In this document: piece after piece, positions 6,793 through 19,890 of the stretch | How positions within the stretch are numbered: position 1 is the stretch's first letter | How the letters are laid out: the number at the start of each line of letters is the position of its first letter | Source: Candidatus Binatia bacterium | GTDB lineage: Bacteria; Desulfobacterota; Binatia; DP-6 | Reading direction: 5' to 3' | DNA length: 32,000 nucleotides | Assembly (NCBI GenBank): GCA_036009625.1 | Contig: DASYLJ010000177.1 | Span: 11,501 to 43,500 of the forward strand | The notes under the pieces: model-generated | What the model was told of the DNA's origin: nothing | Database searches by the model: none | The model's input: the letters and a program-made list of their open reading frames with translations, nothing else | Translations under genes and position numbers: made by a program

Positions 6793-8103
6793 CTATTCGG
6801 TGGACACCACGCCACACGCTCCGGATGGGCCGACGCGGAGGCTGGCGTGGATCGGCATCGCCGCTCCGAACCCGGTGCGGGGTGTCTTCAGCACCAGCTT
6901 CCGGAGGGCACCTTTCCGGATGGTCGCCCGCGCGATGGTGAAGGCCCCCACGGCGCTCTGTTGGAACTGGCCGCGGCCGACGCGGCGCCATGGCCCGGCG
7001 ATGACCTGGCAGCCGGCCTCCGCCGTCGAAATCACGACGGTGGTTTCGGCCGCGTCGAAGAGCACGCCGGGCGGTGGCCGCGCGACCACCGACAGGCGCA
7101 GGCCGTTGCGCCCATACGTCGCCGTACCGGTGATCGGCTCGGCGAGTGTGCAGCACGCCGGATCGTCCGCGTCGACCAACGCGTTGCCGTCATCGTCGAG
7201 GCAATTGTCGCAGGTTTCGGTGGGGGCCGACGTCGCCATCCCGCAGTTGCACGAACACGACGACGCGGTCGTGCCGTTGTCGGCGCCGTCGTCGCAGAGC
7301 TCGCCGAGATCGGTGTCGAGGAAGCCGTCACCGCAGGCGGCGCCGAGGCACGACTGCCCGGCGTGGATCGGTGCCCCGATGCCGATGATCGGTCCGGTCT
7401 GCTTCGTGAAGCCGAGCACGACGTCGTACTCGGCGCGGCTGCCGGTCGATGCGATCGGGTTCTGGTCGTAGCGCTCCGTGGGGGTGCACGGGAAAAGGCT
7501 GCAGTCGATGTCGGCGCCGCAGGTGCGGACGCCGTCCTCGCACACACCCGCGTCGCACGTCCGGTCGCATGCGAAATCGCCTTCGCACTCGGCGAACAGC
7601 CCCGTCGTTTCGGGGCGCTTGCAGGCGGTTCTCGACGTGGCCAGGCAGCTACCGTCGGCGCAGCCTTCGACGCCGAGCAGGCTGGCTATCTCGGAGGAGT
7701 AGAACTTGTATGCCAGCCACGACCCCTGGGGGAGATGGGTTCGAACGAGCTCGGTCTCGGTGAGGCCGGTGACGCCGTTCTCGCTGGACACGCACAGCTG
7801 CGCCGGTTGGTTGTTGTCATCGCAGGCCGGGTACTGCACCGTGGTTGCGACGTCGTTGCGCGAGCACAGGACGGCCCCTTCGGTGCGCAGGACCCAGCTG
7901 GCGGTGCTGCCGGCTGGACCGCAGGCGTCACCATGATCCGTCACGGTGAACGTGATGCGGGCCGAGCGGTCACCAAAGGTGCCGAAGCTGCGTTCCCCAG
8001 GTGGCGGCCCCCCCGCACGTGCGTTACCGCCGAGGACGACCAAGGCGCAGAGCAGCAAGGTGCCCAGGTGCATACGCCGCTGGAGCGGTTCGATGCCGCG
8101 CAT
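6793..8103 (-). CDS. Secreted cysteine-rich repeat protein (Myxococcus-type CGDG...CDDG repeat and metal-binding-like CxxCxDDD motif)
   Basis: Signal-peptide-like N-terminus MHLGTLLLCALVVLGGNARA; the alternative start is ATG 8073. There are more than 30 Cys residues. CGDGFLDTDLGELCDDGADNG matches the myxobacterial cysteine-rich repeat, and ETCDNCLDDDGNALVDADDPACC resembles the DDD-rich putative metal-binding repeat. High GC3. Confidence 0.7.
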   Translation of the reverse strand: MRGIEPLQRRMHLGTLLLCALVVLGGNARAGGPPPGERSFGTFGDRSARITFTVTDHGDACGPAGSTASWVLRTEGAVLCSRNDVATTVQYPACDDNNQPAQLCVSSENGVTGLTETELVRTHLPQGSWLAYKFYSSEIASLLGVEGCADGSCLATSRTACKRPETTGLFAECEGDFACDRTCDAGVCEDGVRTCGADIDCSLFPCTPTERYDQNPIASTGSRAEYDVVLGFTKQTGPIIGIGAPIHAGQSCLGAACGDGFLDTDLGELCDDGADNGTTASSCSCNCGMATSAPTETCDNCLDDDGNALVDADDPACCTLAEPITGTATYGRNGLRLSVVARPPPGVLFDAAETTVVISTAEAGCQVIAGPWRRVGRGQFQQSAVGAFTIARATIRKGALRKLVLKTPRTGFGAAMPIHASLRVGPSGACGVVSTE

Positions 8104-8155: not shown

Positions 8156-11100
8156 TCACCGTCGCGGGGCCAGCTCGCAGATACCCTCCCATGGCACGGA
8201 CGGGGGATCGTCGCGCAGCTGGCGGCATCGGTCACAGTAGAGCCGTACGGCAGGATCGTCGGGATAGTCCCGCGCCAGGCGCTCGAATCGCGCAAGGGCC
8301 TCGGCGAAATCACCCGCCAGGTACTCGGCTCGCGCACGCACGAAGTGATCCTCGAGACGGCGTAGTCGTCCGTCGAGATCGTCGCTGACCGTCCCCAGCA
8401 GCTCGTGGACGACCAGCGGCGCTTCGCGGTCGGTGATGCGCACGCGATCCAGCTCCCGAAAGACGAATTCGGAGCCGGCGCTGCGTCGGGTCGCGTCGCT
8501 GACGAGGATCGGAGATCCATGACAACGCAGACGCTGCAGCGTCGCGGCCATGTCGGCAGCGTCGCCGCGGGCCGTGAAATGAACGTCGAGCCCGTCGCCG
8601 AAGTTGCCGACCAGGGCGTGTCCCGATGCGATGGTGACGGGAAGCAGCGGCGCGCTCGCAGGGGCATCGTGGAGGAGGGCGAGTGCACCGCGGCAGGCGG
8701 CCGCGGCGTGGTCCGGACCCACCATGCGGTCGTCCCAGAACGCGGTCAGGCCCAGGCGAGTTCGGAGGTCCACGATGCCGCGGGCCGCGACCAGTGGGCG
8801 CTCCAGGGCATGGCGCGCCTCGTCGTCGAGGACGTCCACGGGGCCGGTCATCAGCACGGATGCGTCGGCATGCACGGGCGCCTTCGTGACGTCGGGAAGG
8901 ATCGTGTTGAACAGCTCGCTCGAGGCATCGATGCCGGTGTCGTCGCGCGCGAGACCGACTGCGGTGGCATCGGCGATGCGCGCCAGATGCGCCAGCTCCT
9001 GCGGGTCGTAGACCTCGCCGGAGCGGCGAACGCCGAGAACGATGAAACCGAGGAAGAGTGGTCCCTGGCGTAGCCCGAGGACGATCTCGCCGTGCAGCCG
9101 GGTGAGGACGTGCCGCTGCGACGGCGGAATGCGCATGGCCGCCAGGGTGCTCCAGCGGACCTGAAGGTCGGCGACGCCTGGAGCATGGTAGAGCACCGAC
9201 AGGATCGGATCGTCGAGCGACAGGGTGGATGGCGGGGCCCGGCGCCCCGGACGCCCCTGGGTGAACGCGGTCCGGAAGGTGGTGCCCTCGCGCACGTAGC
9301 CCGTGCATTCGGAGACTCCGATCAGCGTCATCAGACGCTCGCACGAGAGCCGCAGCACGTCGCGTGCGTCCCGACGCGTGGCGAGATCCGCGAGGAGCTC
9401 GTCGGTGGCCGTCGCGAGTCGCCGGCGTTCCGACCGGAAGAGGCGGTCGACCACGGGCACGATCACCCACGCACGCAGGACGAGGGCTCCGACCAGGAGG
9501 GCGACGGTCATGATGGTCGCGACCAGCCGTCGCAACGCCTCGCTGGCCTCGCCGGGGACGAGCTGCTCCACGGCAGCGCGGGTCACGTCCGGATAGACGA
9601 GCAGGCCGCCGCAGGCCACGACGAACAGCGTCGAGTACAGCATGGTGGTGCCGGCGAGGAGCCGATCGATGTCGAGCAGGTTTGCTCGCGTTACCGCGAC
9701 CAGAATCGACAGCGGAATGAGCGCCTCGCAGAGCATCAGGACGTCGTGGAGCCAGTACCATGCGGACCCTCCGATGCCGGCGACGGCGTTGGCGAGGGCG
9801 ACCGGGAGCAACGCGGCATAGAAGCCGAAGTAGATCCACTTGATCTGCAGGCGTCCGCGGGGATCGGCGTTCCGGTAGTTGCGCGTGATGAGCGCTAGGA
9901 TCGCGACCACGAACACGAGATTGACGACGTACATCCCGACGATGCCGAGCCACGTCGGAAGGGGGCCGCCGAGGACGTAGGTCAACACGAGCGGACCGAA
10001 CACGGCGAAGAGCCACGGCCAGTATTTCGGCGGGGGCGGCGCCGAGGATTCCGGCACCATGGCGATGGGGCGGACCAGAAGCGGAAAGACCAGTGTGGAG
10101 CTGACCGCGAAGACCGTGAGCCACATCCAGCTCATCGCCGGCGTCCCGCCGAAGAACCACAGCCAGTGCAGGGCCAGGAGCAATGCGCCGACGTAGACGG
10201 CCCGAGCGAATGCGGAGTGCGGTCGGCGCAGGAAGACGAACAGGCCGGTGAACACGTAGACGCCGGTCATGACGGGAAGGCGCCATGCGGATGCAACCGG
10301 GACGAAGGGAAGCTCGGTCACGAGTCGCGTGCCGCCGCGATCGATCAGGGCCGGCACGACGCCGGTGGGGGATCGCCAACGCTCGTCCTGTGCCGCGACG
10401 AAGACGTCGATACGACCGGCGCCGGCGAGGTCGGTGGTTCCGACCGACAGCAGGCGGTCGCCCGGCCTCGGCATGGTGTCGCTCGTCGCGGCCGTTCCCG
10501 GCCAGTACGCCTGGACGGTCGGATGGTCGGAAGAATCCGTTGCTGGTGTGACGTACACCCCGACCCATGCCAGGCCATGGTGGAGCATCTGTGCGCTCCA
10601 TGCGCCGACGGCGACGAGCCAGAGCAGGGCCAACGCGAGCATGGCGACCTCGCGCAGACCGAGGTCCCCGGCGCGATCGCGTGCGCCTGCGGTCCAACGA
10701 CGCCACGACGCGTCCTGGGCGGCGATCGGTGGTCGCGCGGGGGGCCATGGTCGATCGGAACGATGCGGATGGTCGCCCGGTGGGGTGGAGGCGGGCCGCT
10801 CGAGCGCGCGATCGAGGAGACGAATGCGGTCGGTGTCGACGGGACGCCGCGGAATGCCCAGCGCCTGCACGCCGGCGCGGATGGCCGGGAGCGTTTGCTC
10901 CAGAGACGCATGGGTCAGCCGGGTCGAGGTCGCGGCCCCCACCATGAATGCCACGTTGGGTGCCCGGCGCTTCAGATCGTCGTGGGTGATGTCGAGCAAC
11001 AGCGGAACGAGCGGCTTGCCGCCTTCCACGGCTGCGAGGAGCTCGCGATCGACCTGCGGCGAATGCAACGACCGTGGAGACAGGATCACCAGCAGGGCCG

Positions 11101-11263
11101 TGGACGCGGCGACCGCCCGTCGAACGCGTTCGACGTAGGAGGGCCCGGTCTCCGTGTCGACCTCGTAGATCCAGGTCGCATGACCGGCCACCTCGAGGTC
11201 GCGCGCGATGATGAGAGCGACGTCGGCATCTTCGGCCACGTGGCTTATGAAGATCGTGCTCAT
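8156..11263 (-). CDS. 1035-aa multidomain membrane protein: N-terminal TIR, PDZ-like loop, about 10 TM segments, GAF-like domain, catalytically degenerate class III cyclase-homology domain, TPR-like tail
   Basis: Domain coordinates are approximate.
- TIR (aa 1-135, nt 10859-11263): IFISHVAEDADVALIIARDLEVAGHATWIY...LLVILSPRSLHSPQVDRELLAA, with the conserved Glu at E74 (codon 11042-11044).
- PDZ-like (aa 235-320): ...PGDRLLSVGTTDL...
- Hydrophobic segments: aa 205-225 and nine more between aa 328 and 605.
- GAF-like (aa 620-775): ends ...GEIVLGLRQGPLFLGFIVLGVRRSGEVYDPQELAHLARIADATAVGL.
- Cyclase-like (aa 795-950, nt 8414-8881): ASVLMTGPVD replaces the xxVLFxDIVGFT metal-binding motif, and ARGDAADMAATLQ replaces GxxVNxAxRxE. 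The metal Asp and the Asn/Arg are therefore lost.
- C-terminal tail: YLAGDFAEALARFERLARDYPDDPAVRLYCDRC is typical of sequence downstream of bacterial cyclase domains. Confidence 0.85.
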   Translation of the reverse strand: MSTIFISHVAEDADVALIIARDLEVAGHATWIYEVDTETGPSYVERVRRAVAASTALLVILSPRSLHSPQVDRELLAAVEGGKPLVPLLLDITHDDLKRRAPNVAFMVGAATSTRLTHASLEQTLPAIRAGVQALGIPRRPVDTDRIRLLDRALERPASTPPGDHPHRSDRPWPPARPPIAAQDASWRRWTAGARDRAGDLGLREVAMLALALLWLVAVGAWSAQMLHHGLAWVGVYVTPATDSSDHPTVQAYWPGTAATSDTMPRPGDRLLSVGTTDLAGAGRIDVFVAAQDERWRSPTGVVPALIDRGGTRLVTELPFVPVASAWRLPVMTGVYVFTGLFVFLRRPHSAFARAVYVGALLLALHWLWFFGGTPAMSWMWLTVFAVSSTLVFPLLVRPIAMVPESSAPPPPKYWPWLFAVFGPLVLTYVLGGPLPTWLGIVGMYVVNLVFVVAILALITRNYRNADPRGRLQIKWIYFGFYAALLPVALANAVAGIGGSAWYWLHDVLMLCEALIPLSILVAVTRANLLDIDRLLAGTTMLYSTLFVVACGGLLVYPDVTRAAVEQLVPGEASEALRRLVATIMTVALLVGALVLRAWVIVPVVDRLFRSERRRLATATDELLADLATRRDARDVLRLSCERLMTLIGVSECTGYVREGTTFRTAFTQGRPGRRAPPSTLSLDDPILSVLYHAPGVADLQVRWSTLAAMRIPPSQRHVLTRLHGEIVLGLRQGPLFLGFIVLGVRRSGEVYDPQELAHLARIADATAVGLARDDTGIDASSELFNTILPDVTKAPVHADASVLMTGPVDVLDDEARHALERPLVAARGIVDLRTRLGLTAFWDDRMVGPDHAAAACRGALALLHDAPASAPLLPVTIASGHALVGNFGDGLDVHFTARGDAADMAATLQRLRCHGSPILVSDATRRSAGSEFVFRELDRVRITDREAPLVVHELLGTVSDDLDGRLRRLEDHFVRARAEYLAGDFAEALARFERLARDYPDDPAVRLYCDRCRQLRDDPPSVPWEGICELAPRR

Positions 11264-12833: not shown

Positions 12834-15428
12834 CTACACGATCTTGCGCACCCGGAATCCTGCCCGCTCGACGAGCAATGGAAGGTCCCGGATGGTGTTG
12901 CGATCCCTGACCTTGTCGGGCTCGGTGAGCAGGTCCCAGGGTATCAGGAGCGGGTGATGCTTGCGGGCGTCGTCGCGCTTGGGGGCGAAGGTCCAGCCGC
13001 TTCTTCGACGTTCAGCCATCCAGCGATCGTGCTCGCGCATCGCGAGCATCTCGATGTCGGCGTCGGTGATGATGATCTCCGACGGGCGCATGCCGTGGCT
13101 AGGAGCGAGCTCATACCCGAGGAGACGGAGCTTGTCTGGAATGTCCGCCACGTTGGCGCGGTTCGCATGCCGGAGATCCTCGGTCAGATCCTCCCAGGGG
13201 CGCATCGACCTGTTGGTGAGCGGAGTATCGCCGCGCATCCGGGATTCCGCGCAGTAGCTGTCGTGCTGCGCTCTCGCCAGGTCCTCGAGTGCGAGCACGC
13301 GTTGCGGGACGACGCGGTAGATGCGGTAGCGGCCCGGATAGCCCTTCGCGAGCGGAATCGTGCCCCCGTACTCGCACACGAATCCCTCGTCGCCCGCCGT
13401 GTCGTGACCGATGCCGGCCGACTGCCGCCGGCGCTCGATCTCGGCGCCGAGCTCCGCGAGCGCGGCGAACTCCTCACTCGCGAAGACCTCGCCAGGTCTG
13501 GTCACCGGTTCGATGCGCGCCGCCCGGTTCACGTGCGACCCGGTGAACCCGAGCCGTCGAACGACCGGGTCGTAGTGCATGACGACCGGACCGGCGTGGA
13601 GCCCGGTGCGGATGTTCAAGGGATGCTTCTCCCCATCGAGCTCCCAGTAGAGGCCCAGCGCGAGCCACTCGTCCCGACCTTCCTGCACCAGCTGGGCGAG
13701 CTCCAACGCGAACAGACCAGCGTCACGCGCGAAATCGAACACCGCGTAGATCGCGTCACCCCAGGTGTTGACGCTGCACGGCGCGTGCTTGCTCGTCGCG
13801 ATCAGCTGGGCGACGCGCCCGAGGAAGGCGCCGACGAACTCGGGGACCACCTTTTCGGTGAGCTTGCTGTAGCCGACGATGTCGGCGAACAGCATGCTCT
13901 TCACTTCCTGGTGCATGCTCGATCGCTCGCACCTACGGACCCACGGTTCGTGGGTGCCGACGCTGTCGTGGTCCACCGGCACGGCCGGTGGCTGGACGAT
14001 GATCGGCTGCTCCTGCAGCTGCCCGTGCCAGAACCAGTAGGTGGAATCCGTTCCGCCCGCGCCGCGGCCGGGGAACCCGTTCCAGAAGACCATGGGCTGG
14101 ATGTCGAGCCGTGATGCCCGCGCCGTGTAGAGGGCGATGCCCGCACTGACCTCCACCATGTATTCCCAGCCCACGTCGCTGCTGGGCTCGTAGACCTGAC
14201 CGATTTCGCGGATGGTGGCCGCGCCATCGATCGCGCGCTCGAACAGGGGCTGCCAGACCGGCGGGCCGGGCAGATCGAACGGCTCGATGCTGGTGCGACG
14301 GAACTCCTCCTTCGACCATGGGAGGACGAGGTGGACCGTCCCCCCACGTGCCAGCAGGGCCTCGGCGAACAGGAGATCGGCACCAGCGCACGCGCTCACG
14401 AGACCGACTCTCGCTTGCAGGGTGTCGAGCTGCTTGCGGAGCGACTCACGCGCGCCCTCGATTGATTCCGGTGGAAACCGCACGCGCTCGCCCGGACGAT
14501 CGGGAAGATGGCCGGCGAAGACGATGAGCTGCAGCGGCGGGAATGCGGACTTGAACAGATCGCGCGGCTGGCCGAGCGCCTCGGCCAGGAATTGCGCCCA
14601 GTAGCGCCGCTCGGCGAGCTGCGCCGTGGTGACGTTCTCGATGGTCTGCAGCAGCTCGTAGTGCCTCGTGGCCGCCTGCACGTCGCCGAGCACGGTGAGC
14701 GCGGTGGCGCGCGCCCATGTCGTGTCCAGACTCGGGCCCTCGTCGTCCTCGCGCGCATTCACGCGGGTGACGACGTCCCGCGCCTTGCTCCGCGCCTCGT
14801 CGCGGAGGGCAGATCCTTCCTCGCCGAGGACGAACGCGGCGGCGGCGGTGAGGACGAGGGCGTCGAGCTGCGTTGGGTCGAGTGCCAACGCACGCTGGTA
14901 GAACCCCAGCGCCTGCTCCGCCGTTCGGACGTAGGTGGCCTTCGCCGCCACGTGCTGCGATTCTTCACGGAGGATGTCGCCCAGCTGCAGGAGGATCGCG
15001 AACTGCATGCGCCGGCCCAAGACCGGTCGGGAGCGGGGATCCAGACACGGCTCGATCACGCTCCGTGCGTCTCGCGTCAGGCCGAGTCGCGTGAGGGCGG
15101 ACGCGTAGTCCATCCGGACTCGGACGAGCTCGGTGGGATCGTTCTGATCGGCCGGGTCGAGGCGGAGAATCTCGCGCGCAGCATCCCATACGAGGAGGAA
15201 CTCCTCCTGCGCGAGCGCATGGCGCGTGAACAGCCGCGCGAGCGCGATGTCCTGCTGCAACCAGGCAATCTGCGGCGCGGGTCGTCCCACCCCGTCGGCC
15301 TTCTTGCGCTGATCCGGGTCCGGTACCGGTTGCCGCTGCGCCCAGATCGCGTGCAGATCGCGTACCGAGACTCTGTCCGACCGGAGAAGGCTCTCGACGT
15401 CGCCGACGTGCTCGAAGCTCATGACCAT
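12834..15428 (-). CDS. 864-aa multidomain protein: TPR-like N-terminus, SLOG/DprA-LOG-like Rossmann domain, intact class III nucleotide cyclase domain with non-canonical specificity residues, two C-terminal RyR repeats
   Basis: Domain coordinates are approximate.
- TPR-like helical repeats: aa 55-295.
- SLOG-like (aa 298-470, nt 14019-14537): LIVFAGH...VGLVSACAGADLLFAEALLARGGTVHLVLPW (DprA-like Gly-rich motif) and GFPGRGAGGTDSTYW (LOG-like GGxGT motif).
- Cyclase (aa 505-705, nt 13314-13916): MLFADIVGYS (metal Asp D516, codon 13881-13883), NTWGDAIYAVF (D558), IRTGLHAGPVV, GSHVNRAARIE (N634, R638). Asn554 (codon 13767-13769) sits where adenylyl cyclases have Lys, and Gly627 where they have Asp.
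- RyR repeats (aa 712-860): LARAQHDSYCAE...RPWEDLTEDLRHANRANVADIPDKLRLLGYEL and LAMREHDRWMAERRRSGWTF...HHPLLIPWDLLTEPDKVRDRNTIRDLPLLVERAGFRV. Confidence 0.85.
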   Translation of the reverse strand: MVMSFEHVGDVESLLRSDRVSVRDLHAIWAQRQPVPDPDQRKKADGVGRPAPQIAWLQQDIALARLFTRHALAQEEFLLVWDAAREILRLDPADQNDPTELVRVRMDYASALTRLGLTRDARSVIEPCLDPRSRPVLGRRMQFAILLQLGDILREESQHVAAKATYVRTAEQALGFYQRALALDPTQLDALVLTAAAAFVLGEEGSALRDEARSKARDVVTRVNAREDDEGPSLDTTWARATALTVLGDVQAATRHYELLQTIENVTTAQLAERRYWAQFLAEALGQPRDLFKSAFPPLQLIVFAGHLPDRPGERVRFPPESIEGARESLRKQLDTLQARVGLVSACAGADLLFAEALLARGGTVHLVLPWSKEEFRRTSIEPFDLPGPPVWQPLFERAIDGAATIREIGQVYEPSSDVGWEYMVEVSAGIALYTARASRLDIQPMVFWNGFPGRGAGGTDSTYWFWHGQLQEQPIIVQPPAVPVDHDSVGTHEPWVRRCERSSMHQEVKSMLFADIVGYSKLTEKVVPEFVGAFLGRVAQLIATSKHAPCSVNTWGDAIYAVFDFARDAGLFALELAQLVQEGRDEWLALGLYWELDGEKHPLNIRTGLHAGPVVMHYDPVVRRLGFTGSHVNRAARIEPVTRPGEVFASEEFAALAELGAEIERRRQSAGIGHDTAGDEGFVCEYGGTIPLAKGYPGRYRIYRVVPQRVLALEDLARAQHDSYCAESRMRGDTPLTNRSMRPWEDLTEDLRHANRANVADIPDKLRLLGYELAPSHGMRPSEIIITDADIEMLAMREHDRWMAERRRSGWTFAPKRDDARKHHPLLIPWDLLTEPDKVRDRNTIRDLPLLVERAGFRVRKIV

Positions 15429-15497: not shown

Positions 15498-18400
15498 TCA
15501 GCCGCGGCGACGCTGGCGTGGACGACCCCGGCGAGGGGTGGCCGCGTGCCGTCGTCCGGGTGTCCTGCCGATGTCCGCCTCGAAGAATCGGAAGAACGGA
15601 TTGCCATAGTGCTGATAGGCGCCCCACGTGCGTACGCCGTAGGCCAGTTTCCCGACGACCCGGCGGGCTTCACGCATGGCCTCGTGCATGGCCTCGGGCG
15701 GCTCGACGTCGGCTGTGTTGGCAGGGGTTCCCTCCACGTCGAGACCGAGGAGGCCACCGTAGAGCCGCCGCGCGAACGCGCGCGCGGCCATGTCGTCGAC
15801 GGGCCACGCCGTGCAGACGAAGTTCGCGACGCCGCGCGCGAAGAACGCCTCGGCGAAGCTCGGCGCGAGGGTGGCGTTCCTCAGCTCGGAGCGATCCGGG
15901 GTGATGCCGGACTCGCACGCATTCGAGAACACGAACTTGGGGATGCGGTCGATACGGTTCAGCTCGCGTGCGCTCAGGGTCTTGCCGCCGGAGAAGATCC
16001 AGCCCGATGCAGGCGGATTCGTCTCGTCGTAGAAGCAGTGGCCCGCGAAGTGCAGCACGTCCCAGGCGCTCCCCATGAGCTCTTCCAGCACACGGGCACG
16101 CGTTGCCTCGCTCGGGCCGAAGAGCCGCACGACCTCGGCGCGGTTCTCGTGCCGACCCTGCGCGGCCGCGTTGAAGCGCTCGAAGAGCTCCGCGACGGCG
16201 ATGCCTTCTTCCTCTGCGCCCGGGAGGTGTGCCTCGGCCGCGGGATCGGCCACGATGAGCACCCGGAGGGTCCGCCGGGGTGGTGGCGGTGGCTCGGGCG
16301 GTGGGGCGAAGGCCGTCCGAAGCTGGCGCGTGAGGCCACCCGCCGTCCCGAAGAATCGATCGAACTCGTCGGTCGCGATCGGCGACGCCGGCAGCGGGGT
16401 TCCAGGAGGCGCATCGAGATCGGGGCGGGTGACGAGCTCCCAGTGAATCGCCGCGGCCTTCGTGTCGAGCAGCATCACCAGTGGAGCATTACCGCGCAAT
16501 CGCTCGCGGAAATCGGCCGGGAACATGAAGCGACCGAGGTTGCCTCCGTGCCACTCCTGCTGCTTGACGTCGGTCACCGTCACTAGCGACTCGTTGATCT
16601 CGCCGACCAGTGTCGAGTCGAGGTCGATCTCGCGCTCTGGGACCGAGGCGGTCTCGGTCAACGCACCATAGCGGTACTTGTCGTGCTCGAACGTCAGGGT
16701 GATGCGTGTGGGCGGCGGGTCCGTTCGCGGGGATGCCTCGGCGCTCCGCCGGGCCTTCTCCTGCTTGCGGTCCCAGGCGATGGCCTGCCGGTTCAGACGT
16801 TTCGTCTGCTCGGGTGTGAGTGGGGCGTAGCGCAGCGTGAACGGCGCGCCGTCGTCGTGGTCGCGCTGCTCGTCCGCCAGCGCGCGATCGATCTCGGCGA
16901 CGCGATGGGGATCGAACTCGACGAACGTGATGCGCTGGAGCCGCCGCCGTGTGTCGCTGCTCGACCCCGTGAGTGCGTACCGGAGACCACGTACCCATGC
17001 CTGCACGGCCGCGCGCACGGGCAGGTTCCCGTTGCCCGAACCGATCAGCACGGTCGCGAGGTGCTGCTTGCCGAGACGCCCGAGGGCCCAGGCGAGCTCG
17101 CGGACGAGGACCACCAACTCGGGACTGCCGAACCGCGCCGGAACACCGAGCCCGGCAACGGCGAGCACGCGTTCCGGGGACCGTCGGCGCCCGACCCGCT
17201 GGCGAGGATCGGGCAGGAGAAACGGCGTACCCAGCTCTCCCCGCAGCACGCCGCGATCCGTGTACTGGGTGAGCAACAGGTCGGCCGTCCCGACGTCCCG
17301 CGACGAGACGGTGGCGCGCCGGCCGGGCAGTACGGCGCTGATGGCGCGATCGAGCGCCAGCTCGGCTGCCTGCGGGCGCACGCCGAGGTAGTGCCCGACG
17401 GCGACGGCATCGACCGGAAGGCGGCGGCCCCCCAGCTCGTGGGCCCCGTCGATGCTTCCGAGCTGGACGTCGACCTGCACCGAAACCATCGTTTGCGGGC
17501 GCGCGGTCATCGAGCCCGGCGCCGGTCGGGCGGAGGACGGGCTGCCGCCCAGGAAACCGCGAACCACGATGTCCTCGCTGAGGCGCTCCTCGGGAGCGAG
17601 GTAGGTGCGCTCGACCTCTCCCACGCGTGAGCGCGCGCGCATCCGACGCGTGAGCTCCGTGAGCTCCTGTTCCTCGTTCGCTGCGCGCTCGTGCAGGGCG
17701 TGCAGGTCCGCCCGTGTCACCCGCCCGCGCGCGCGGCGCGGAATCGTGGTGCCGAGCGAGCTCGTGCGGCCGTCCTTCAAGAGGTCGTCCAGGGCGGTGA
17801 GGACCGCGTCGTTCATGGGGAGACTGCCGTGCTCGGCCTCGACGTAGTACGTCGGGACGTCCCGCCCGTTCGCGGTGCGTAGCAGTCCCAGGTCGTGGGT
17901 TACGCGTCCATCCCCATCACGGGTCCATAGGTAGGCGCCCTCGTCGCGAAACTTCGACGGATCACGGAGGCCTGCCAGGGTGAGCTGATTGCACCCTGCG
18001 ACGTAGATCATGCGGTCGGGATCGACCACGTTCTGGAGTGCGACGTGTTGTCGCGCGGCGGCCTCGAGATGCTCTCGCCAGATGTCGAGCCCATAGGTGG
18101 AGGCATCGTAGAGGGGTTGCATCGACGGCACCGCGATCGGTGACGGCAGCATCTGCAGAAGCCCGGGAAAAGACGCGATGATGCTGCACACGTCCTTCAC
18201 GCCGTGGTGGAGGTCGACCAATGCGAGTTTCCGCACGAGGGGTTCGATGCCCGCGATCACCTGCGGCACGACGAAGGCCCCGTGGTTCGGCGTGCCGAGC
18301 ATCACGAGTCGCCCGCCTGCCATGCGCCGCCACAGCTGGTCGTGGTTCAGGATGAAGGTGCGTGCGACCAGTCCTCCCATCGAGTGGGCGACGAGATGCA

Positions 18401-18926
18401 CCGGTCCGCCGTCGGGGAACCATTCGACGATCTTCGCGGCCAGATCGGCCGCGGCCAGATTCAGATCCTTCCGCCAGTCGTACCAGAAGGCTTGCACTTT
18501 CCACCGTGCGCCGAGGGCGATGAGGATGTCGCCGTAGTAACGCTTGAGCATCCCGACGGCGCGGACGTCCCAGCCTGGCTCGTATCCCGCGCGACCATCG
18601 GGCCTGAGGCGCAGGCGATCGAAGGACCCGGCGATGAGGCGCCAGACCTTGACCCAGATCAGCTCATTGTCGGCCTGACGAGTGGCCGCGAGCTCGCCGC
18701 CCATGATGCCGTGAAGGACGACGACGTTGCCGATGGGCCGGCAGGCGCCGCGAGCACGATTCCGCGCCAGCGTGCGACCGTGAAGGCGCTCGTACCGAGC
18801 GTCGCCGAAGTACTGCCGCAGCGCGCGCTCCTGATCGAGCGACGGTCGGAGCAGCAGCCGGGCGAAGTCGTCTGGATTCGCTGCCTCGACCTCGGCAATG
18901 AACGCACGTTCGTCGAACGACGGCAT
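15498..18926 (-). CDS. 1142-aa multidomain protein: N-terminal alpha/beta-hydrolase (LCAT/PGAP1-like lipase), central macro-like (peptidase M17 N-terminal-like) domain, C-terminal CHAT caspase-like protease
   Basis: Domain coordinates are approximate.
- Lipase (aa 65-375, nt 17802-18734): VVVLHGIMGG, YDWRKD, nucleophile elbow VHLVAHSMGGLVAR (S182, codon 18381-18383), RDGDGRVTHD (Asp) and EAEHGSL (His).
- Central region (aa 485-685, nt 16872-17474): DAVAVGHYLG...RVLAVAGLGVPARFGSPELVVLVRELAWALGRLGKQHLATVLIGSG...AAVQAWVRGLRYAL. By eye it resembles the leucyl-aminopeptidase N-terminal macro-like fold.
- CHAT (aa 745-1110, nt 15597-16694): AAIHWELV, LRVLIVADP, catalytic His in VLHFAGHC (H963, codon 16038-16040) and Cys in FVFSNACESG (C1004, codon 15915-15917). 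Confidence 0.85.
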   Translation of the reverse strand: MPSFDERAFIAEVEAANPDDFARLLLRPSLDQERALRQYFGDARYERLHGRTLARNRARGACRPIGNVVVLHGIMGGELAATRQADNELIWVKVWRLIAGSFDRLRLRPDGRAGYEPGWDVRAVGMLKRYYGDILIALGARWKVQAFWYDWRKDLNLAAADLAAKIVEWFPDGGPVHLVAHSMGGLVARTFILNHDQLWRRMAGGRLVMLGTPNHGAFVVPQVIAGIEPLVRKLALVDLHHGVKDVCSIIASFPGLLQMLPSPIAVPSMQPLYDASTYGLDIWREHLEAAARQHVALQNVVDPDRMIYVAGCNQLTLAGLRDPSKFRDEGAYLWTRDGDGRVTHDLGLLRTANGRDVPTYYVEAEHGSLPMNDAVLTALDDLLKDGRTSSLGTTIPRRARGRVTRADLHALHERAANEEQELTELTRRMRARSRVGEVERTYLAPEERLSEDIVVRGFLGGSPSSARPAPGSMTARPQTMVSVQVDVQLGSIDGAHELGGRRLPVDAVAVGHYLGVRPQAAELALDRAISAVLPGRRATVSSRDVGTADLLLTQYTDRGVLRGELGTPFLLPDPRQRVGRRRSPERVLAVAGLGVPARFGSPELVVLVRELAWALGRLGKQHLATVLIGSGNGNLPVRAAVQAWVRGLRYALTGSSSDTRRRLQRITFVEFDPHRVAEIDRALADEQRDHDDGAPFTLRYAPLTPEQTKRLNRQAIAWDRKQEKARRSAEASPRTDPPPTRITLTFEHDKYRYGALTETASVPEREIDLDSTLVGEINESLVTVTDVKQQEWHGGNLGRFMFPADFRERLRGNAPLVMLLDTKAAAIHWELVTRPDLDAPPGTPLPASPIATDEFDRFFGTAGGLTRQLRTAFAPPPEPPPPPRRTLRVLIVADPAAEAHLPGAEEEGIAVAELFERFNAAAQGRHENRAEVVRLFGPSEATRARVLEELMGSAWDVLHFAGHCFYDETNPPASGWIFSGGKTLSARELNRIDRIPKFVFSNACESGITPDRSELRNATLAPSFAEAFFARGVANFVCTAWPVDDMAARAFARRLYGGLLGLDVEGTPANTADVEPPEAMHEAMREARRVVGKLAYGVRTWGAYQHYGNPFFRFFEADIGRTPGRRHAATPRRGRPRQRRRG

Positions 18927-18932
18927 GCGGCG

Positions 18933-19724
18933 TCAGGCGAAGATCTGCCGGCGGGTCTTGGCCGCTGCACCTTCGAGCTGCGGGGATTGCGGATAGTCCC
19001 TGATCGCGCGGCGGAGACGGCGATGCAGCTCGTCGTAGGTCAGCTGGTACTTCGCGCGCTCGATGGTCTTGAGCGCGTAGTACGTCATGGCGCCGTGCGG
19101 AATGCCGTCGAACTCGGCGTCGTACGAGTACTGACGGTCGTTGCACCCCGAGAGCACCACCTCTTTCATCTTGGCTTCGGGGTAGTCGGGCCGCGTTGGT
19201 CGTGCGGCCCACGGGTTGTCGAGCTCCGGTAGGCCGCGGAGACGCGGGTTCAGGAAGCGCACCCGTCGGTTGTCGGGCGTGGCACGGTCGAGGGCACGGG
19301 TCGCCGTGCCCGAGAAGCAGTTGTCGAGGATCACGGTGAGCCGGACGCCCTTCGGCAGGCCGGCGATCAGCTCGCGGAGCTCGTCGTCGACGATATCGTT
19401 GGCGTCGATGTCGTAGGGGCACAGAACCTCGTCGTACTTCTCTTCGTCGCCGTCCGTGTCCGCCACATAGGAGCCGTGAGATGAATTGGTGAAGACGAGA
19501 ACGTCGCCCGCCGTCGCCCCGGCCAGGAGTGCCTTGAGGGCGCGGAGCGTCGCACGCTTGGTCGCCTGGGCATTGAGGAGAAGCTTCACGTCGCCCTTCG
19601 AGAAGTCGTAGTGGTCGGCCAGCAGTGCCGCCCACGCGCGCGCGTCGTTGACGCATCCGCTCAGGTCGTTGCCCTTGTACGGGTAATCGTTGATCCCGAC
19701 GCAGAGCGCGCGTTTCCTTCCCAT
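18933..19724 (-). CDS. Peptidase C14 caspase/metacaspase-like protease (stand-alone, 263 aa)
   Basis: RALCVGINDY, with catalytic His in VFTNSSHGS (H83, codon 19476-19478) and Cys in VILDNCFSGT (C136, codon 19317-19319). Start ATG 19724 is preferred over 19757 because of the GGGAGGA SD 6 nt upstream. The stop lies only 6 nt before the start of the CHAT gene. Confidence 0.85.
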   Translation of the reverse strand: MGRKRALCVGINDYPYKGNDLSGCVNDARAWAALLADHYDFSKGDVKLLLNAQATKRATLRALKALLAGATAGDVLVFTNSSHGSYVADTDGDEEKYDEVLCPYDIDANDIVDDELRELIAGLPKGVRLTVILDNCFSGTATRALDRATPDNRRVRFLNPRLRGLPELDNPWAARPTRPDYPEAKMKEVVLSGCNDRQYSYDAEFDGIPHGAMTYYALKTIERAKYQLTYDELHRRLRRAIRDYPQSPQLEGAAAKTRRQIFA

Positions 19725-19890
19725 GCGGCGTCCTCCCGGTGCGGCTCGAGCCCGCACTCGGTGAGCAAACGACGTGCCGGCGCGTCCCGTCGGGAATCAC
19801 CCACGGTACCGACGACGGCGTCCCGTACAGTCGACATCGTGTCCGGCGGAGCGGACGACGCCGTGTCACCCACGCGTGTCCGGAGACGAC

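Follow-up and report, generated by a model that had tools for sequence, protein, structure and literature searches.

Here, we analysed the gene for a three-part protein in a stretch of 32,000 nucleotides (nt) from Candidatus Binatia bacterium (assembly GCA_036009625.1, contig DASYLJ010000177.1, positions 11,501 to 43,500), which we call the window and from whose first letter all coordinates are counted. The gene, 15498..18926 on the minus strand, is a single open reading frame (ORF) with an ATG start and a product of 1142 amino acids (aa), referred to as the target. An LCAT/LPLA2-type alpha/beta-hydrolase, for short the lipase, is followed in this protein by a macro-like domain homologous to the N-domain of M17 leucyl aminopeptidases (M17N-like domain) and by a CHAT protease. 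The GC content at third codon positions (GC3) of 0.84 is like that of neighbouring real genes in the window (GC ~0.70), and the product is identical to a database entry (P0001) named 'CHAT domain-containing protein' from a metagenome-assembled genome of Candidatus Binatia bacterium. An initial annotation, made from the sequence alone, had quoted motifs for all three parts, each of which we found in the translation at the residues it gave: AHSMGG (aa 180-185), GDGRVTHD (338-345) and EAEHGSL (363-369) in the lipase, DAVAVGHYLG (506-515), RVLAVAGLG (586-594) and ELVVLVRELAWALGRLGKQHLATVLIGSG (603-631) in the middle domain, and LHFAGHC (958-964) and SNACESG (1001-1007) in the CHAT domain.

A full-length AlphaFold2 model, built on a 46-sequence alignment (predicted local distance difference test (pLDDT) 82.4, predicted template modelling score (pTM) 0.63), divides the chain into four N-terminal helices (aa 1-61), an alpha/beta-hydrolase (aa 65-385), further helices (aa 405-455), a disordered stretch with pLDDT <50 (aa 464-479), an alpha/beta/alpha domain (aa 481-700), a long helix (aa 705-728) and the CHAT region, itself composed of an N-terminal sub-domain (aa 740-884) and a caspase-like core (aa 885-1110). 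The linker in front of the middle domain (aa 386-480; 17487..17771, minus) is helical, then disordered, and poorly conserved apart from a helix at ~445-459, and the one behind it (aa 701-739; 16710..16826, minus) is a variable, long charged helix that leads from the M17N-like domain to CHAT. No signal peptide was detected and the target is predicted to be a cytoplasmic bacterial protein, unlike LPLA2 and LCAT. A Pfam scan of the protein assigned no family to aa 1-140 or aa 380-880, and NCBIfam holds no model covering it.

The middle domain and its relation to M17 aminopeptidases

The middle domain (aa 481-700; 16827..17486, minus) was modelled separately as aa 476-745 with a pLDDT of 91.7 and a pTM of 0.88. 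Its top Foldseek matches in the PDB are M17 N-domains with expectation values (E) of 1e-7 to 1e-6, namely those of E. coli PepA (1gyt, E 1.3e-7), a Plasmodium enzyme (6wvv) and a Pseudomonas enzyme (8pzm). Macro domains were matched as well, with template modelling (TM) scores per target of 0.65-0.78 (macroH2A 1zr5, 0.69; TTHA0132 2dx6, 0.73-0.78; YmdB 5cb5, 0.69; PARP9 macro, 0.66), a second YmdB structure (1spv) being among them. Sequence profiles point in the same direction: a profile of 53 middle domains matched the N-domain of Xanthomonas PepA (3jru, E 5e-4) across RGxxxGxxG...RVxxxGxGxxGxFG, and the Pfam family Peptidase_M17_N (PF02789) is matched by 22 of these 53 homologues (best E 1.2e-5), the target's own sequence giving no PF02789 match at E<=5. 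On predicted structure and sequence profiles taken together, the middle domain is homologous to M17_N, which itself falls into the macro-like fold class; the macro-like or M17_N likeness, which had been called by eye, is thereby borne out.

Two other assignments were considered and rejected. Membership in the canonical Macro family finds no Pfam Macro match in the target or its homologues, and an hhalign comparison with a YmdB sequence, to be read as a lead only, returned a probability of 2%. The idea of a pseudo-caspase like those of separase or Csx29 was dropped because the top 50 PDB matches consist of M17 N-domains, macro domains and designs derived from them and include no caspase fold, and because the sequence profiles lead to M17_N.

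The signature of the domain reads DAxxVGHY, RGxxxGxLG, AGMGxxGxFG, ELxxxxRELxW, HLATVLIGxGxGN and ITFVE. Its invariant residues lie in three loops, after the strand at aa 507-513 (D506, V510, G511, H512, Y513), after that at aa 587-594 (G592, F599, E603, R609, E610) and after that at aa 622-628 (I628, G629, G631, G633, N634). Judged by the order of secondary structure elements, not by superposition in three dimensions, these loops appear to line up with the three loops that bind the ligand in macro domains, and at the positions of the macro motifs for ADP-ribose (ADPR), NAAN...GGG and GxxG, the family reads GHYxGV and IGxGxGN. In comparison with PepA-type M17 N-domains, which it resembles in fold and profile, the domain is conserved much more strongly, has the invariant motifs GHY and IGxGxGN of its own and comes without the M17 catalytic domain: no Peptidase_M17 catalytic match was found in the target, where CHAT comes next instead. 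A single-sequence phmmer search of 1.84 billion cluster representatives with the middle domain returned 437 clusters at E<=1e-3, and CHAT follows it in 8/8 proteins whose architecture was examined. By these sequence searches, the M17N-like domain is a small, dedicated family.

Catalytic residues of the lipase and CHAT domains

The lipase domain (aa 65-385; 17772..18734, minus) is matched by Pfam LCAT (PF02450) over aa 144-223 only, with 28.2 bits against a cut-off of 21, next to weak matches to PGAP1, DUF7379 and generic alpha/beta-hydrolase families. A profile match to LPLA2 (4x90, E 0.021) spans the Ser motif, and Foldseek aligned aa 65-385 with LPLA2 (4x90, TM per target 0.68) and LCAT (5txf, 6mvd and 4xx1, 0.61-0.64) over ~390 columns at 17-21% identity. 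The nucleophile Ser182 (18381-18383) sits in a GxSxG-type elbow, AHS182MGG, and is joined by Asp339 (17910-17912) in GD339GRV and His366 (17829-17831), all on the minus strand. The AHSMG nucleophile motif, the GDG-type Asp and the His are thus common to the target and LPLA2/LCAT, to which the target adds the four-helix segment at its N-terminus and the fused domains. The triad is intact in the target, as had been read from its motifs, and is conserved among family members (Asp339 80/80, His366 79/80, Ser182 75/80); here and below, counts of 80 refer to the best 80 loci from the 311 species described in the next section, all of them full-length. The five exceptions are members from Chloroflexota with Gly or Ala for Ser182 (L024, L038, L040, L056, L058), in which Asp339 and the CHAT dyad are kept; a further, non-catalytic function of the hydrolase domain is thus possible.

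In front of the lipase lies a segment without assigned family (aa 1-62; 18741..18926, minus), with helices at aa 6-15, 18-26, 30-40 and 42-61 (pLDDT 81-93), which is moderately conserved and on the low side in the family alignment. It had been suggested to be a small helical adaptor; its helical nature is supported by the model, and its role as an adaptor is not, as the 62 residues gave no Pfam or PDB profile match and could not be assigned to the effector-associated (EAD) or Death-like adaptor families. The segment occurs together with the lipase, also in a copy fused to a STAND protein (see below), and a comparison with the sequences of SIR2 and nSTAND1 partners revealed no such segment in common.

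The CHAT protease extends over aa 740-1110 (15597..16709, minus). Pfam CHAT (PF12770) matches aa 881-1109 with 86 bits (cut-off 24), and homologues span positions 2-289 of the profile. The His/Cys dyad proposed in the initial annotation corresponds to His963 (16038-16040, minus) and Cys1004 (15915-15917, minus), and both residues, together with His959, are found in 80/80 members. At E 1e-10 to 1e-7, Foldseek matched the C-terminal half with the Csx29 TPR-CHAT protein of Craspase (8d9f, 7y84), with separase (9hn5, 5fby) and with DdvA, a CHAT anti-sigma factor; the high global root-mean-square deviations to CHAT and separase structures are due to domain orientation. Directly before the first strand of the caspase core, a nearly invariant poly-proline motif (FAPPPEPPPPP, aa 873-883; 16278-16310, minus) is predicted to be disordered (pLDDT <50 at 874-880) and might serve for docking, autoinhibition or cleavage.

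Family size and distribution

A search of 5.8 billion proteins yielded 1208 matches to the target at E<=1e-5, the best 120 of which align over 96-100% of the query with 46-53% identity. With one genome per species, relatives occur in 311 of 185,579 species representatives from about ten phyla; the best 80 loci come from Acidobacteriota, Verrucomicrobiota, Chloroflexota, Myxococcota, Planctomycetota, Gemmatimonadota, Actinomycetota, Gammaproteobacteria and others, and named hosts include the isolate Hyalangium versicolor (Myxococcota) and Tautonia sociabilis (Planctomycetota). Since the full-length architecture is conserved across homologues and these 311 species, the fusion is neither chance nor artefact. 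An assembly or frameshift artefact is ruled out by the full-length homologues, more than 1200 in number, and by three independent metagenome contigs with the identical locus, so that the single chain of lipase, macro-like domain and CHAT, which might have been a frameshifted junction, can be taken as real. As a side observation, one contig from Planctomycetaceae (CAVWUB010000004.1) carries two full-length paralogues ~0.6 Mb apart (L078 and L080); upstream of the latter, a divergent C14-like ORF lies on the other strand.

Architectures around the M17N-CHAT core

The dominant architecture is that of the target, lipase-M17N-CHAT, and a few others are built around the same core. M17N-CHAT alone forms a complete internal gene for 661 aa on a 9.9-kb contig (P0125, L088), a Metallophos domain is found in front of M17N-CHAT in a protein of 998 aa (P0138, L093), and a complete gene on a 41-kb contig adds PLDc_2 behind lipase-M17N-CHAT (P0177, L094; 1776 aa). 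These three variants are stand-alone genes where flanks exist. In P0134, nSTAND1 is fused to the lipase-M17N-CHAT module. The M17N signature residues are retained in all architectures, hence they do not serve an interface with the lipase. From these comparisons, M17N-CHAT appears as the constant core, and the N-terminal enzyme behaves like exchangeable effector cargo.

One operon deserves a closer description. At L089 (3-9154), a lipase-M17N-CHAT gene is followed by SIR2_2 and then by an nSTAND1 gene fused to a second whole copy of the module. This second copy has lost catalytic residues (lipase Ser to Glu, lipase His to Asn, CHAT Cys to Val), its VGHY and IGxGxGN motifs are intact, and it occupies the position usually taken by the sensor repeats of STAND proteins. 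The fusion is a physical link between a STAND protein and the module, in keeping with homotypic recruitment; the pseudo-enzyme copy may act as an adaptor or integrated decoy.

Genomic neighbourhood

Directly upstream of the target gene lies a gene for a Peptidase_C14 caspase-like protein of 263 aa counted from Met12 (18933..19724, minus; Pfam C14, 92 bits), in which the His motif SSHGSY and the Cys motif DNCFSG are intact. This gene is the second caspase-fold protease of which the initial annotation had spoken. Its stop codon precedes the target ATG by 6 nt, a gap which suggests translational coupling. An identical 8-mer, GACGCCGC (GACGCCGCATG including the start codon), precedes both Met12 of C14 and the target start (19722-19735 and 18924-18937, minus), and a clear ribosome-binding site, GGGAGGA, is present before Met12 of C14 only. 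Homologues of the C14 protein (57-68% identity, tblastn) were found in nine of the 80 family loci: six times directly upstream of the family gene (L047, L024, L029, L034, L009, L011) and three times within ~2.5 kb (L065, L071, L087). With the window included, C14 is a partner in at least 9 of ~69 loci, which represent four to five phyla. Judged by this recurrence in sequence, the C14 caspase is likely a functional partner of the target.

To survey further neighbours, we combined unsupervised clustering of flanking ORFs with a Pfam census of 84 adjacent ORFs on the same strand, for which the 25 most frequent of 44 families were listed; counts of about 68 or 69 denote family loci with flanks. 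SIR2, the commonest neighbour, is encoded directly downstream of the family gene as SIR2_2 in 14 of ~68 loci, and in 13 loci an nSTAND1 NTPase of ~950-1000 aa (with WD40 repeats where annotated) comes after it. Such SIR2-nSTAND1 loci occur in Verrucomicrobiota, Acidobacteriota, Rhodothermales and Solirubrobacteraceae. The census has C14 next to the family gene in six loci, and no TIR family is among the 25 families listed. Neither SAVED nor CD-NTase/Cas10 was matched in the target or its scanned neighbours, and a metagenome locus matching that of the target has no STAND among its precomputed Pfam families.

Downstream of the target and separated from it by 69 nt is a gene for a protein of 864 aa (12834..15428, minus), in which Pfam detects TPR, a class III cyclase and an RyR domain, and which also has a SLOG/TPR-S-like region. 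It belongs to a conserved full-length family of its own (153 matches at E<=1e-10, the 120 listed being 48-71% identical). One homologue is encoded directly after unfused genes for a DUF7379 hydrolase, an LCAT-like protein and a CHAT-TPR-S protein (L092), and another faces genes for nSTAND1, SIR2-TIR, TIR-TPR and TPR-S-patatin (L090); a further locus of this cyclase/RyR family is L091. From these settings the 864-aa protein looks like a component of conflict systems that repeatedly accompanies lipase and CHAT genes, and membership in the target's island is possible. The next gene downstream, two genes from the target and likewise on the minus strand, encodes Lnt. It is followed, three genes from the target, by a gene for a TIR protein (8156..11263, minus) with an N-terminal TIR_2 domain followed by ~10 predicted transmembrane helices, a cyclase-like region at the C-terminus and TPR, in other words a multi-pass membrane signalling protein and not a STAND. 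A Cys-rich protein of 436 aa with a signal peptide and a weak match to an 'acidic double-disulfide repeat' (6793..8103, minus) is, from its sequence, probably secreted and unrelated to the target. None of these four, TIR, cyclase-RyR, Lnt and the 436-aa protein, qualified as a conserved partner, as tblastn found their homologues in 0/80 family loci.

Relation to known systems

CHAT is the protease of the SAVED-CHAT/PCaspase systems, found as type III-B CRISPR-CBASS hybrids in Haliangium ochraceum, where SAVED-CHAT bound to cyclic triadenylate (cA3) polymerises into filaments and then activates the neighbouring PCaspase by cleavage (bioRxiv 10.1101/2023.06.23.546230). SAVED-CHAT and the target both carry a C-terminal CHAT domain after a regulatory alpha/beta domain, with the gene for a small caspase-like protease adjoining; the target differs in that the M17_N/macro-like domain stands in for SAVED, that a phospholipase is fused and that no CRISPR or CD-NTase genes lie nearby. 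Csx29 TPR-CHAT (Craspase), separase and DdvA share with the target the CHAT fold and a His/Cys dyad; the target differs from them by the lack of a TPR/armadillo region, by its partners and by the lack of sequence likeness in a PDB profile search.

A different kind of relationship exists to the STAND conflict systems of multicellular bacteria described by Kaur, Burroughs, Iyer and Aravind (2020/2021). Their effectors include caspase-like peptidases, alpha/beta-hydrolases and NAD-processing enzymes; combinations of caspase-like proteins with alpha/beta-hydrolases have been noted in them, and the latter are listed as effectors against membrane lipids (PMC8195603; PMC7159879). The family shares with these systems nSTAND1 as a recurrent neighbour or fusion partner and the same kinds of soil phyla, whereas the target has no detected EAD or Death-like domain and no STAND gene among its scanned neighbours. 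A term search of these papers turned up neither the M17N-like domain nor the exact architecture. Thoeris types II and IV employ a macro-fold sensor or a caspase-like effector under control of an NAD-derived signal; the target is not Thoeris because no TIR is conserved (0/80 loci) and the middle domain is not a canonical Macro domain. Finally, Borvo is a single-gene defence system which, like the type III-E system, has CHAT as its protease (PMC10952713), and its BovA is likewise a stand-alone CHAT-containing protein. Membership in Borvo was rejected, since the PADLOC BovA model gave 19.4 bits (E 1e-4) over model positions 525-641 of 711, about 120 residues of the CHAT core, with no sign of a common architecture at the N-terminus. 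A literature search, mostly outside subscription journals, retrieved no paper on an M17_N-like domain coupled to CHAT or on the three-part architecture.

Proposed function and alternative explanations

But, what could be the task of a protein that joins a lipase and a protease? CHAT and caspase-fold proteases become active through proximity or assembly, and M17 N-domains take part in oligomer contacts. Going beyond anatomy and gene linkage, where every functional claim on the target is ours, we infer a cell-death effector because of this mode of protease activation, because of the M17N-like domain at the position of SAVED or TPR and because of the fusion of STAND with a dead copy of the module. 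Our favoured reading, still tentative and rated a little short of an even chance, is that the target is a cytoplasmic cell-death or immune/antiviral effector, in which CHAT would be switched on by assembly through the M17N-CHAT core and process the C14 protein, while the lipase would attack membranes. SAVED-CHAT/PCaspase and the STAND-centred conflict systems would then be closest in working.

In such a scheme, the M17N-like domain in front of CHAT would serve as a built-in regulatory and assembly module. A trigger would gather copies of the protein via their M17N-like/CHAT core: where a genome has an nSTAND1 gene next door, this sensor might do the gathering, and for stand-alone genes the trigger might be a ligand or a protein that attaches to the M17N-like domain at its conserved loop face. 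Proximity would turn on the CHAT dyad, and CHAT would cut the small C14 caspase, whose gene ends 6 nt upstream, to start a protease cascade, and maybe its own linkers too. The lipase would degrade membrane phospholipid, and the outcome would be cell death or growth stop. We take the working unit in the window to be the C14 caspase and the lipase-M17N-CHAT protein, with the TIR protein outside it.

Several observations weigh against this proposal. Oligomerisation through the M17N-like domain is derived solely from the behaviour of M17 N-domains and from the single fusion of STAND with a dead copy. The window has no STAND or SIR2 gene around the target, and no STAND-family match was obtained among the nine minus-strand genes scanned around it. 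Most family loci (~40 of ~68 with flanks) are without a conserved partner and often lie amid housekeeping genes; in Pyrinomonadaceae, the family gene is syntenic, with a radical-SAM gene on one side and lpxD/lpxA on the other. Like this synteny, the neighbour-joining tree of the family, which largely tracks taxonomy, is less typical of mobile defence genes. With 5/80 members devoid of the lipase nucleophile, the lipase is not always catalytic.

Could the middle domain be a nucleotide sensor instead? It would bind an NAD-derived ligand, such as ADPR, an isomer of cyclic ADPR or O-acyl-ADPR, made by TIR or, more plausibly, by an adjacent SIR2, and would switch lipase and protease allosterically. 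The macro-like fold speaks for such a function, as do the GHYxGVxP, AGMGxPGxFG and IGxGxGN loops, colinear with the macro ligand loops in secondary-structure order and with invariant residues of the polar or glycine-rich kind found in binding pockets, the place of the domain at the position of SAVED in SAVED-CHAT, and SIR2_2 NADases as the commonest neighbours. Thoeris provides precedents, with a Macro domain that senses His-ADPR in type II and a caspase-like protease activated by N7-cADPR in type IV. However, a conserved TIR neighbour is found in 0/80 loci, about 60% of the loci are without any signal-generating partner, and the TIR protein of the window is a membrane signalling protein with two genes in between. 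The sequence likeness is to M17_N and not to ADPR-binding macro domains; M17_N is not known to bind nucleotides, and SIR2 is known from all characterised systems as an NAD-depleting effector and not as a signal synthase. We therefore regard a nucleotide sensor as unlikely, though worth keeping in view. The earlier proposal of a dual effector gated by a nucleotide-binding middle domain is supported in its lipase and protease and not in the gating by TIR-derived ADPR, against which both the loci without TIR and the missing likeness to ADPR-binding macro domains argue. A more elaborate version, to which we give a small chance, places SIR2 upstream as a signal source and not only as an NAD drain: firing of a STAND-controlled SIR2, or NAD collapse, would yield an NAD-derived molecule, possibly ADPR or O-acyl-ADPR, that is sensed by the M17N-like domain, whereupon the protein would polymerise and fire phospholipase, CHAT and, by way of CHAT, C14. 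The STAND protein with the dead copy would here be an integrated bait or adaptor for the effector.

Two further explanations were considered. The target might be a stably inherited, cytoplasmic housekeeping enzyme for envelope or lipoprotein turnover or lipid remodelling without any role in cell death, in which an acyl-hydrolase or acyltransferase and a peptidase act on the same lipidated substrate and M17N is an oligomerisation scaffold only, as in leucyl aminopeptidases. This would agree with the mostly stand-alone genes amid housekeeping genes, the synteny with the lipid A genes lpxD/lpxA/lpxB in Pyrinomonadaceae, Lnt two genes downstream in the window, a tree that follows taxonomy and the absence of any PADLOC system match except the weak, CHAT-only match to BovA. 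It is hard to reconcile with the repeated, independent linkage to nSTAND1, SIR2 and C14 in several phyla and with the STAND fusion, or with the exchange of the N-terminal module for toxin-type enzymes (Metallophos, PLD). In Pyrinomonadaceae themselves, a SIR2-nSTAND1 pair has been inserted precisely between the family gene and lpxD in some members and is absent in others. Moreover, relatives in only 311 of 185,579 species representatives mean that the family has no core function. A housekeeping role thus appears rather improbable to us. Alternatively, CHAT could cut the target's own linkers (aa 386-480 and/or 701-739) and free the lipase as the sole executioner of a self-processing zymogen. 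The M17N-like domain is indeed flanked by long, variable and partly disordered linkers, the N-terminal cargo is swappable on a constant M17N-CHAT, and proteolytic release of an autoinhibited hydrolase has a precedent in the trypsin-MBL module (bioRxiv 10.1101/2025.09.03.673762). Yet the linkers showed no conserved motif for cleavage, and the existence of M17N-CHAT without lipase, together with dead lipases beside an intact CHAT in 5/80 members, requires that the protease has other substrates. We consider self-processing on its own the least probable of the explanations given here; it overlaps with the favoured assembly-activated effector and may be part of it.

Significance

Recent work on Craspase, SAVED-CHAT/PCaspase, type IV Thoeris and Borvo has brought CHAT and caspase-like proteases to the fore as executioners in bacterial immunity. 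The family described here offers a new candidate regulatory domain for CHAT, spread over hundreds of soil-bacterial species and combined with interchangeable toxin-type enzymes. A STAND protein fused to a dead copy of its presumed effector is a bacterial example that resembles pseudo-enzyme recruitment or an integrated decoy. If C14 is the substrate of CHAT, two-step protease cascades would reach beyond CRISPR-linked systems. If a ligand derived from NAD is bound by the M17N-like domain, SIR2 NADases would be tied to downstream signalling, and should SIR2 indeed be the source of that signal, the firing of phospholipase, CHAT and, through CHAT, C14 would amount to a three-tier death cascade resembling the initiator and executioner caspases of eukaryotes.

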